DNA of 64,000 nt, taken from assembly GCA_964016885.1 (NCBI GenBank), contig OZ024741.1, positions 303,056,001-303,120,000 of the forward strand, read 5' to 3'. Below the pieces are notes generated by a model that did no database searches, had not been told where the DNA came from, and was given only the letters and a program-made list of their open reading frames with translations. The stretch comes from Eledone cirrhosa (lineage: Eukaryota). Each line of letters begins with the position of its first letter. Within the stretch, counting starts at the first letter, position 1. Shown piece by piece: positions 1,810 to 62,980 of the stretch. The translations under genes and the position numbers were made by a program.

Positions 1810-2236
1810 ATATATACATACATTTATGTTCTGTTGTTTATATTATGTTGTTAATGTTATATTGTTTACCAATGAGTAGAATTGGTGAATCGGGTTAGTA
1901 AACGATGATGCAATAAATTAAAGTACCCGGCGTTATGCAAATCCTCCATTGCAGATGTGGTAACCCATGGCTGGTGCTGCAACGGGGTTAAATATTCATT
2001 AAAAACAACAAAAGGCTGGACTGGAAACTTTCTTTAAAATTTTCATTCCGCGAAAACACTATACACGTTTCAATGGCCTAGTTTCATCATCCGATCGGTA
2101 TACAAGATTTAGACGATTTTATCAGGTGTTGATTGCAGAATTAGTTATATAACACGGCGAACACAAATAGAGAATAGATAATAGAGGATAGATTTGATTC
2201 GAAGATGGCCTGCCAATTCGCCCAAAACACACGAAA

Positions 2237-2797
2237 TTGAACATTACATATAATCTAGCTAAAAGAATTTGCACAATAGTATCGGACGAATTAGAAAGGG
2301 CTAAAAATATAGATATCCAAGAGACAAGACCAATAAAAAACAAAACCAGGGAAATTGTTTACTATATATCAACTTTCAACTCCAAAAATATCGAAATGTT
2401 TGACCACCTTCGCAAAAATCTTTCTATTTTACATGAAGATGAAAAAATCAAAAAGGAAAAAAAAAAATCAAGAAACACACCAAGTCATCAAGAATAAAAG
2501 ACAGCCCCAAACTCTAAAACATATGCTTACTGAGGCATAAACCCATAAACATCTTTAACCCCAAAAAGCGGTACCTGCTTATACCTAATTGAAGAACCGG
2601 GATTCAAATTTAAGGCTTCACAAACCTTCCCAATAAATGAAAATTTCATCTGCAACTCAGAAAACCTAATATATATGGTTACATGCAATGGATATCTGCA
2701 AAATTATATAGGACATACAGGAATTTCATTTCGCAAAAGAATGACCATACACCGCCAGCAGATCCGTCATGAAAACACGAGATAAATCCCCTTAAGC
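2237..2797 (+). pseudogene. Penelope-like element ORF fragment (RT thumb/linker to GIY-YIG endonuclease), degraded
   Basis: Translates NITYNLAKRICTIVSD...YISTFN...KRQPQTLKHMLT, then NLIYMVTCNGYLQNYIGHTGISFRKRMTIHRQQI (GIY-YIG motif at about 2663-2722). Stops and frameshifts are present. Confidence 0.8.
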
Positions 2798-2946
2798 ATA
2801 TAATATACTGTATGTTTATTTAAAACATTTTGAAGACCATTCGCTATGAGGCTGGACCGGCAACTGCTCTGCTTAATCAGCTCTTAAACATCGCCTGAAT
2901 TCTATAAGAGTTCAACTTCGATAAGTCTCGGCAGAAGCGAGGGGAT

Positions 2947-3130: not shown

Positions 3131-3173
3131 ACCGAGAACAAATGTTTCACCTGATGCGGATCTTCAGCTCGGT
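3131..3173 (-). ncRNA. Type I hammerhead ribozyme (minimal)
   Basis: Minus strand: ACCGAG-CTGAAGA-tccgcatcaggt-GAAAC-attt-GTT-CTCGGT. Helix I is 6 bp and helix II is weak. Confidence 0.7.
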
Positions 3174-59669: not shown

Positions 59670-59737
<68 letters not shown>

Positions 59738-59739
59738 AT

Positions 59740-59889
59740 AAAGAGGGTGTGGTAAGATACTAGTTGGACCATAACGCACCTGAGTACTCAATACTTAGGG
59801 TAGTAGAGTGGGTAATAGAAGAGTCAGGACCCCGACGGCTGAGCTCCAACCGTTTCGACAGCTAAATCCGAACCAGTCCTGACTCTTTT

Positions 59890-59893
<4 letters not shown>
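59740..59893 (-). mobile_element. Family A insert with the 3' half of a hammerhead, in (TA)n
   Basis: Reverse complement contains GTCGAAACGGTTGGAGCTCAGCCGTCGGGGTCC followed by the family A tail. Confidence 0.75.
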
Positions 59894-59953
<60 letters not shown>

Positions 59954-60379
59954 TATTGAAGTTTCCGTTGAAAATTGAAAAAGTCATAGGAGTGAAGAGT
60001 GCTCTATGTTATTATACATTATATATATATATATATAAACGGAAAAAATGAAACGGAATTTCATTTCCCACTCATATTACGGCTGTTACTTAAATATAAG
60101 TATGTACACGTACATACATATATGTATACAGACGTACAGTAGTATGTATATATATATACATACATGCACACATATATATATGTACGTATGGATTCACCAA
60201 ACATTTATTATAATGCTCGGTGTGTTTGTAAACAAACATCCCGTATTAAGCCGTAGTGTCTAGCAACCATCGTTGCTCGTTTGTTCAACACTGACAAAGG
60301 AACGCTGTACTAGTTTCAAGCTTATACGTATATACGTATATTCAAGTATATACGTTCAACAATCTGGCAGGAAGGTATA

Positions 60380-60420
60380 CGTTGCTGACGATAGCTAATA
60401 AGCTTGAAACTAGTACAGCG
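60380..60420 (+). ncRNA. Type I hammerhead ribozyme (family F, copy 1)
   Basis: CGTTG-CTGACGA-tAGCT aata AGCTt-GAAAC-TA-GTA-CAGCG, with distal pairing CTGGCA..AAGG/CCTT-TGTCAG. Predicted cleavage after A60415. Confidence 0.85.
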
Positions 60421-60801
60421 TTCCTTTGTCAGTGTTGAACAAACGAGCAACGTTGGTTGTTAGACACTACGGCTTAATACGGGATGTTTGTTTACAAACT
60501 CACCGAGCATTATAATAAATGTTTGGTGAATCCATACGTACATATATATATGTGTGCATGTATGTATATATATATATACATACTACTGTACGTCTGTATG
60601 TATATGTGATTGTACGTGTACATACTTATATTTAAGTAACAGCCGTACTAAGAGTGGGAAATGAAATTTCGTTTAATTTTTTCCGTTTATCGTTTTCGGT
60701 GCACCCGGCTGATTAACCCACTCGATATGCAAATTGGGCTACTCAGCCGTTAATATGCATAAGGTAAGTATATACGTTCAACAATCTGGCAGGAAGGTAT
60801 A

Positions 60802-60842
60802 CGTTGCTGACGATAGCTAAAAAGCTTGAAACTAGTACAGCG
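60802..60842 (+). ncRNA. Type I hammerhead ribozyme (family F, copy 2)
   Basis: Identical to copy 1 except for the helix II loop (AAAA). Predicted cleavage after A60837. Confidence 0.85.
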
Positions 60843-61046
60843 TTCCTTTGTCAGTGTTGAACAAACGAGCAACGATGGTTGCTAGACACTACGGCTTAAT
60901 ACGGGATGTTTGTTTACAAACACACCGAGCATTATAATAAATGTTTGGTGAATCCATACGTACATATATATATGTGTGCATGTATGTATATATATATACA
61001 TACTACTGTACGTCTGTATGTATATGTGTATGTACGTGTACATACT

Positions 61047-61098
<52 letters not shown>

Positions 61099-61287
61099 AT
61101 TAGTATATTTACCAACATATGCGTACAGATGTACACTAATGCTAGCAAATACATAAGTTATGTCATAGTACCTAGGTGGTTCTATGCAGGGGGATGCAGA
61201 ACAATTATATGAAAGACGTAAAATAAGAAAATTAAAAAAATTAAAAATGAACTTACTTACTAAAATTATATATATATATATATATAA

Positions 61288-61468
61288 TTTTTTCTACTTT
61301 AGGCATAAGACCAGCAATTATCCCAGTGCATTACTGGTACTTTATTTTATCGACCCCGTAAGGATGAAAGGCAAAGTCAACCTCGGCGGGATTTGAACTC
61401 AGATCGTAAAGGGACGTAACTATGCTGGGAAGCATGGCGTCCGACCCTCTACCGATACTGCCAATCCA
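61288..61468 (-). mobile_element. tRNA-derived SINE, main family, near full length
   Basis: Reverse complement is nearly colinear with 36410-36576. Confidence 0.88.
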
Positions 61469-61597
61469 ATATAATACCCTGTGATAAACAGGCGAAATTC
61501 CAAAGTAACAAGACTCACTATTTAGCCTTAATAAAATGAATATTTAAACTCTACTACGGTATCGAGTACTCTTTTCTCTCAGCCGTCAACCGCATAC

Positions 61598-62766: not shown

Positions 62767-62980
62767 TGGTGGATTGGTACAATTGGTAGAGCATCGGATA
62801 ATATTCTAGTGCGCTATTTCTTCTGGCTCTTTATATTCTGAGTTCAAATCCGATCGAGGTCAACTTTGCTTTTCATCCTCCCGGGGTCGATAAAATACAG
62901 TACCAGTGACGTACTGGGGTTGAGTTAATCAACTTTACTCTTCTCCTAAATCTGCTGGCCTCGTGCCTAAATTAGAAATA
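62767..62980 (+). mobile_element. tRNA-derived SINE, main family
   Basis: TTGGTAGAGCATCGG...TTCTGAGTTCAAATCCG..GAGGTCAACTTTGCTTTTCATCCTCCCGGGGTCGATAAAATACAGTACCAGT. Confidence 0.85.

Follow-up and report, generated by a model that had tools for sequence, protein, structure and literature searches.

The closest described systems are the non-LTR retrozymes of metazoans, known from mussel (350-390 bp), coral and axolotl and including a mollusc example with circles (Cervera and de la Pena 2020, PMC7229834), and the Penelope-like elements (PLEs), whose insertions favour (TA)n, carry a tail at one end and include inverted arms truncated on the 5' side (PMC8557442, PMC3846280). In the work of PMC11167929, the Poseidon protein of anole, a predicted dimer, cuts and extends both strands without requiring ribozyme cleavage, and reverse transcription starts at two internal RNA sites, the interval between them being the genomic tail. 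Animal retrozymes have been argued to be non-autonomous PLE sequences (Li, Clavereau, Pollet 2026, bioRxiv 10.64898/2026.07.22.740005). We describe an element in a 64,000-nt stretch of Eledone cirrhosa DNA, the whole of which is called the window below. It is very probably a dispersed copy of a non-LTR retrozyme, likely copied in trans by a PLE, probably of the Neptune clade.

Layout of the copy in the window

The element is a block (60035-61054) composed of an inverted arm, an 18-nt junction, a full unit and a partial unit, with (TA)n tracts outside. Unit positions u1-422 correspond to window 60344-60765.

60019..60034, no strand: left (TA)n target remnant, from sequence
60035..60325, minus strand: inverted arm, u55-347, 5'-truncated within stem II and ending 3' (60035) at the outer start site u347
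60035..60090, minus strand: 56-nt "tail", u292-347, on the inverted arm only; same pattern family-wide
60326..60343, no strand: 18-nt arm-arm junction with a 12-nt palindrome resembling u3-12, from sequence
60344..60765, plus strand: complete 422-bp unit, u1-422, with a TA/TG simple-repeat stretch inside
60379..60421, plus strand: type I hammerhead 1, predicted cut after 60415
60416..60837, plus strand: predicted cut-to-cut 422-nt monomer RNA
60766..61054, plus strand: terminal partial unit, u1-291, ending 3' at the inner start site u291
60801..60843, plus strand: type I hammerhead 2, predicted cut after 60837
61047..61072, no strand: right (TA)n target remnant, with a microhomology overlap with the unit end

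An earlier, sequence-only reading of this DNA had proposed a 422-bp unit repeated in tandem from 60344 and 60766. The spacing of these starts is 422 and the copies are 97% identical over 291 nt, but the second direct unit is only 289 bp long (u1-291, ending at ~61054), so the direct arm amounts to 1.7 units (422 + 289 bp) rather than two full ones; it holds exactly one cut-to-cut monomer. The rest of the proposed layout was borne out: an inverted partial copy (60325->60035, u55-347) precedes the array, and (TA)n remnants flank the whole at 60019..60034 and 61047..61072. The inverted arm, which begins within stem II, contains no complete ribozyme. The 18-nt junction is likely a product of templated end-joining. 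Among the two-armed insertions of the family this copy is a typical case.

The absence of a credible ORF, also claimed at the outset, was upheld: 15 ATG ORFs of 30-90 aa overlap 59900-61200, and those inside the element are mostly simple-repeat translations. The element is low in GC and shows no LTR/PBS/PPT organisation (PBS and PPT judged by eye), and the ORF with RT and GIY-YIG between pseudo-LTRs (pLTRs) that defines an autonomous EN+ PLE is absent from it. Rfam matches to miRNAs were rejected as inverted-repeat or simple-repeat artefacts. A ribozyme-enclosing intron with a perfect splice donor at 60764 was dropped because the GT is absent in older subfamilies; no splice joint from this donor was seen in four contig sets of unrecorded kind, perhaps the assembly's own sample, in two of which loose ends at 60690 run into (AT)n. 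Just upstream of the ribozyme, at 60700-60745, a short inverted repeat surrounds an octamer-like motif and is kept in three age classes; it is a possible promoter element. Two other short repeats lie beside the element (59736-59891 and 61310-61470), one of them (TA)n-flanked with a hairpin and found also in loci L070 and L071, the other SINE-like with an inverted copy at 62829-62918.

The hammerhead and its family in the genome

Both direct copies carry an intact type I hammerhead motif (cores at 60385 and 60807), each with a 6-bp proximal stem I, an intact core, a stem II of U.U plus 4 bp, and a self-complementary 6-nt stem III/loop. The GUA cut triplets end at 60415 and 60837, which places the predicted cuts 422 nt, or one unit, apart; in both respects the initial reading was accurate. 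Rfam gave no hammerhead match, neither at the gathering score nor at E<=10, so identification relies on motif, pairing and covariation. For the last we compared 20 natural copies, drawn from the young family and from its relatives at 80% and at 70%: 96.7% of 240 cells are paired, as against 21-40% in slid controls; the core is invariant in all three age classes except at the variable N position; and 5 of the 12 hammerhead pairs have changed on both sides, with compensatory changes in stems I and II, though the changes separate essentially two lineages and so represent few independent events. The stem III loop switches from one palindrome to another. Judged by these alignments, the hammerhead is a real conserved structure under selection.

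This hammerhead is predicted to cut its own RNA. In the lone motif the active fold has a predicted energy of -1.3 kcal/mol, 6.8 above the minimum of -8.1 kcal/mol, and being thus disfavoured would fit dimer-dependent cleavage, as described for motifs with a palindromic stem III (PMC4209133). Only one of nine Xenopus dimers was cleaved (bioRxiv 10.64898/2026.07.22.740005). Six further hammerhead-like motifs, belonging to other families, are found at 3167(-), 5196(-), 22191(+), 33514(+), 48172(-) and 48277(+), several with a palindromic stem III.

A 32-nt core pattern, which covers both the young subfamilies of 422-430 bp and the older ones of ~480-510 bp, recurs without mismatch 24,214 times in the genome (3.0 Gb), on both strands and across contigs, against 0 for the reversed control; abundance of the motif is therefore not due to chance. 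We read 170 loci (30 best matches, 50 from a positional list and 90 from three haplotype searches), most spanning only 1.5 kb per side. They represent 153 distinct insertions, of which 5 touching the locus edge were left out of end counts (148 scored). Sampled insertions contain arrays of 2 to >20 units head to tail; at least two ribozymes lie within one arm in 46/153 and at most one per arm in 103/153, and the closed unit is the same in three age classes. An older relative, ~70% identical and with 2,622 first-look candidates genome-wide, shares with the family its closed unit and both of its 3' ends; a single copy of it, with its own intact hammerhead, is present in the window (49874-50160, minus strand). 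The family is a dispersed, multicopy, mobile non-coding repeat, and its tandem hammerhead units, non-coding nature and 24,214 core matches agree with the original assignment to the non-LTR retrozymes. Elements of this kind are already known; the addition is a very large invertebrate family, of >24,000 ribozyme cores.

At C5 ~84.373-84.434 Mb (L282, L289, L290) and C4 ~351.91-351.94 Mb (L283) the unit forms satellite-like arrays with higher-order repeats; the one on C5 has kept an inverted arm at its left and a u291 end at its right. Such arrays, of ~60 kb and with higher-order repeats, retain two-armed ends: DNA-level array growth after insertion occurs in this family. Two apparent features were discarded, the position specificity of variants 332A/367T (~1% by depth) because it arose from ranking the copies by query identity, and the difference between core and flank conservation in the young family because the loci had been chosen by their core.

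Insertion ends and Penelope-like ORFs

The 3' ends of insertions lie exactly at u291 or u347 in 135 of 220 cases, most of the others being nearby or at simple-repeat breaks, and none of the 220 lies within u65-80, at the cut site. The 5' ends of the 148 scored insertions are ragged, scattered over the whole unit. A TA run adjoins 156 of 178 canonical 3' ends, compared with 11% of random window positions. The interval u291-u347 forms a tail of 56 nt, which exceeds the reported PLE range of 30-40 nt. The signature of PLE insertion consists of fixed internal 3' ends with a tail, ragged 5' ends, an inverted arm and (TA)n. The sequence-only reading had set retrozyme against Penelope remnant as alternatives; this opposition does not survive, the ends carrying the full PLE signature, and both descriptions apply. 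By sequence criteria the element is a non-LTR retrozyme and a non-autonomous PLE alike.

Two divergent arms are present in 75 of the 148 scored insertions. Both ends are canonical in 47 of these (one pair being a segmental duplicate counted twice; the 28 others have at least one unclassified end), and in 45 of the 47 one end is u291 and the other u347 (p = 8e-12). With strict bins, one end of each type is found in 39/40, and the bias is present in all four sampling sets. Either arm may be the longer, so neither appears to be a fold-back copy of the other. The 45/47 pairing points to coupled priming from both ends of a single break. The ends of the family match PLE biology, and a PLE protein would act in trans, with one start site per break end.

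PLE ORFs with RT and C-terminal GIY-YIG are numerous in this genome (10,595 GIY-YIG candidates). A CX4CxxC (Neptune-type) linker is present in 6 of 8 C-terminal fragments examined, and those PLE copies also end in (TA)n; one autonomous PLE family has a hammerhead of the same build as that of the 422-bp unit. In a tblastn search with 12 PLE ORF fragments from ~8 families, matches at E<=1e-5 occurred in 3 of the 170 loci, none of them, like a fourth weak match, continuous with the unit in the same sense, and joining to a PLE ORF was found in 0 of the 153 distinct insertions and 0 of the 170 loci. Copies always attached to a Penelope ORF, which on the earlier view would have marked the unit as a mere remnant, are thus not the pattern observed, and a self-propagating non-coding family, not a one-off remnant, is indicated. 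Going upstream from any ribozyme one meets the preceding unit in head-to-tail order instead of an ORF or its 3' UTR.

The search for an autonomous partner covered 50 of the 10,595 GIY-YIG candidates and 30 related loci. When the unit was aligned with 3' regions taken from 8 autonomous families, none of the 16 alignments did better than shuffles, and no matching pLTR emerged among these families. An ORF-adjacent relative of the unit was rejected as a partner link, being a separate insertion (the relative and 30 of its own relatives were read), and the 30 copies of the ~70% older relative that were read included no autonomous partner. The window contains a decayed Neptune-like PLE ORF remnant (2222-2848, plus strand; 46% to the closest family). 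Downstream (3') of the ORFs of several autonomous Neptune-like families, in L061, L070, L073, L077, L079 and L080, a hammerhead-like motif with a palindromic stem III was recognised by eye; its first core box is degenerate and a splice-donor-like site precedes it, whereas the non-coding family keeps the canonical core.

Template of the insertions and comparison with known systems

We envisage that a tandem locus would be transcribed into a multi-unit RNA and that a PLE protein, probably a dimer, would bind the u250-347 region of this RNA and cut both strands of a (TA)n tract. Reverse transcription would be primed from both DNA ends, at u347 from one and at u291 from the other; each cDNA would extend over as many units as possible, then truncate, and the two cDNA 5' ends would be joined, the 18-nt junction being the window's example. 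By way of the palindromic stem III, two neighbouring ribozymes may co-fold and release 422-nt monomers, which may circularise; a multi-unit RNA, either uncleaved or assembled through template jumps, nevertheless seems the more likely insertion template than one monomeric circle. We put forward tentatively, as a possibility, the fuller version of this scheme: coupled asymmetric priming of both (TA)n break ends at sites 56 nt apart, by a PLE dimer acting in trans on the 422-nt ribozyme RNA, with some arrays stitched from ribozyme-cut monomers of different source loci.

Because cDNAs begun at u291 or u347 run through intact ribozymes, their template is a circle, an uncleaved multimer or jump-bridged monomers; a single linear monomer could not serve. 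If the released 422-nt monomer circularised, a PLE RT passing repeatedly round the same circle would generate tandem arms. The cut-to-cut distance equals unit length, the monomer is predicted to have 68% of its bases paired, and retrozymes of similar size in mussel, coral and axolotl are abundant circles (PMC7229834). Rare variants, moreover, are shared by segments of one insertion at 1.06-1.83 per 1000 sites (a range covering terminal-terminal comparisons across arms and adjacent units) and between insertions at 0.09, a 12-20x excess that indicates one source lineage per insertion. One circle should, however, yield identical units, and of 36 rare non-CpG variants found in at least two of at least three overlapping segments, 2 are in all segments and 34 in some; several arrays alternate ABAB and some mix sub-lineages; and the predicted folding z is near 0 in the 3' half of the monomer. 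As these variants come from 12 insertions only and later unequal crossing-over may have blurred them, they weigh moderately against a circle. Units two apart are more alike (7.05) than adjacent units, a difference driven by four arrays, and the long ~60 kb arrays can both supply long linear templates and blur the unit-variant signal. With anole Poseidon in vitro, uncleaved RNA was used and greater-than-unit inserts arose also from uncleaved tandem transcripts (PMC11167929). One monomeric circle is not the best reading of the template, and we think it rather unlikely. Of the earlier proposal, the integrated greater-than-unit cDNA stands; its production by reverse transcription round a circular RNA is only one possibility, as the units of one insertion are usually not uniform (2/36 variants in all units) and uncleaved multimers also give such inserts. 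Haplotype counts across the cut site were 62, 139 and 1887, for three of four classes only; neighbours in the cut-site crossover test belong to many sub-lineages, and the only clean case is the array that prompted the test. In L121 (2351-4124) three sub-lineage markers form a block between two successive cut-site intervals, resembling a stitched-in foreign monomer.

Two further readings were weighed. The unit could be pseudo-LTR debris of an autonomous PLE, 5'-truncated before the ORF and without a life of its own, every end feature being of PLE insertion type and 103/153 insertions having at most one ribozyme per arm; yet the upstream sequence is a previous unit and not an ORF or 3' UTR, arrays reach from 2 to >20 units, the closed unit is kept in three age classes and 0/153 insertions are joined to an ORF, so that this reading is already largely refuted and very unlikely. 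Alternatively a single monomer could have been inserted and then become tandem at the DNA level, through unequal crossing-over or duplication of the satellite kind, and ~60 kb higher-order-repeat arrays with two-armed ends do exist in the family. A solo insert cannot, however, yield u348-422 together with another ribozyme in front of a final unit that stops at u291, and dispersed copies as a rule show the permuted form of 1.7 units, their 3' ends fixed and their 5' ends ragged; we consider an origin of this kind extremely improbable.

A retrozyme copied in trans by a PLE remains our preferred reading, and on it the insertion scars connect the mobility of retrozymes with PLE enzymes, for which the case has until now been made from co-occurrence and pLTR homology. 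The near-perfect u291/u347 pairing across inverted arms constrains how PLE proteins prime both break ends, and with thousands of young copies, genome-wide unit-variant counts could test circles as reverse-transcription templates. If coupled priming is true, the family preserves traces of a stage in Penelope transposition that has so far escaped resolution, and it provides a minimal substrate on which the role of circles as template could be examined. In the literature covered (subscription journals thinly, Repbase and Dfam being outside its scope) we found no cephalopod retrozyme and no counted start-site pairing; given that coverage, the family may already be catalogued.

Like the retrozymes of PMC7229834, the family has thousands of copies and is built of GC-poor, non-coding units that stand in tandem, measure a few hundred bp and hold one type I hammerhead each; a U.U at the base of stem II, with a 2-bp stem III, is described likewise for axolotl HHR_Amex2 (PMC7229834). 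In theirs circular RNA and cleavage were demonstrated, in ours cleavage is predicted and a circle may form; conversely, the inverted arms, two fixed internal 3' ends and (TA)n targeting present here are not reported in the passages of PMC7229834 consulted. The window copy, with two consecutive complete hammerheads, fits the definition of an active retrozyme given by Li, Clavereau and Pollet (2026), and we arrive at the same conclusion of PLE dependence; their argument is from co-occurrence and pLTR homology in vertebrates, ours from insertion scars, with no homologous pLTR among 8 families. Non-autonomous Chlamys elements such as MRC1 are likewise non-coding PLE passengers, with pLTRs and multicopy head-to-tail insertions, but are described as without canonical hammerheads and with a 3' end resembling that of the autonomous partner (PMC8557442). 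With the EN+ PLEs of the Neptune and Poseidon clades the family has in common partial tandems, an inverted 5'-truncated arm and a tail on one arm (PMC11167929, PMC8557442, PMC3846280), as well as two internal RT start sites, AT-rich or (TA)n targets and a hammerhead with palindromic stem III; it differs from them in having no ORF and a tail of 56 nt as against 30-40. The pairing of start sites, one to each end, is stricter here than in the anole in vitro data, in which no strand difference is described (PMC11167929).
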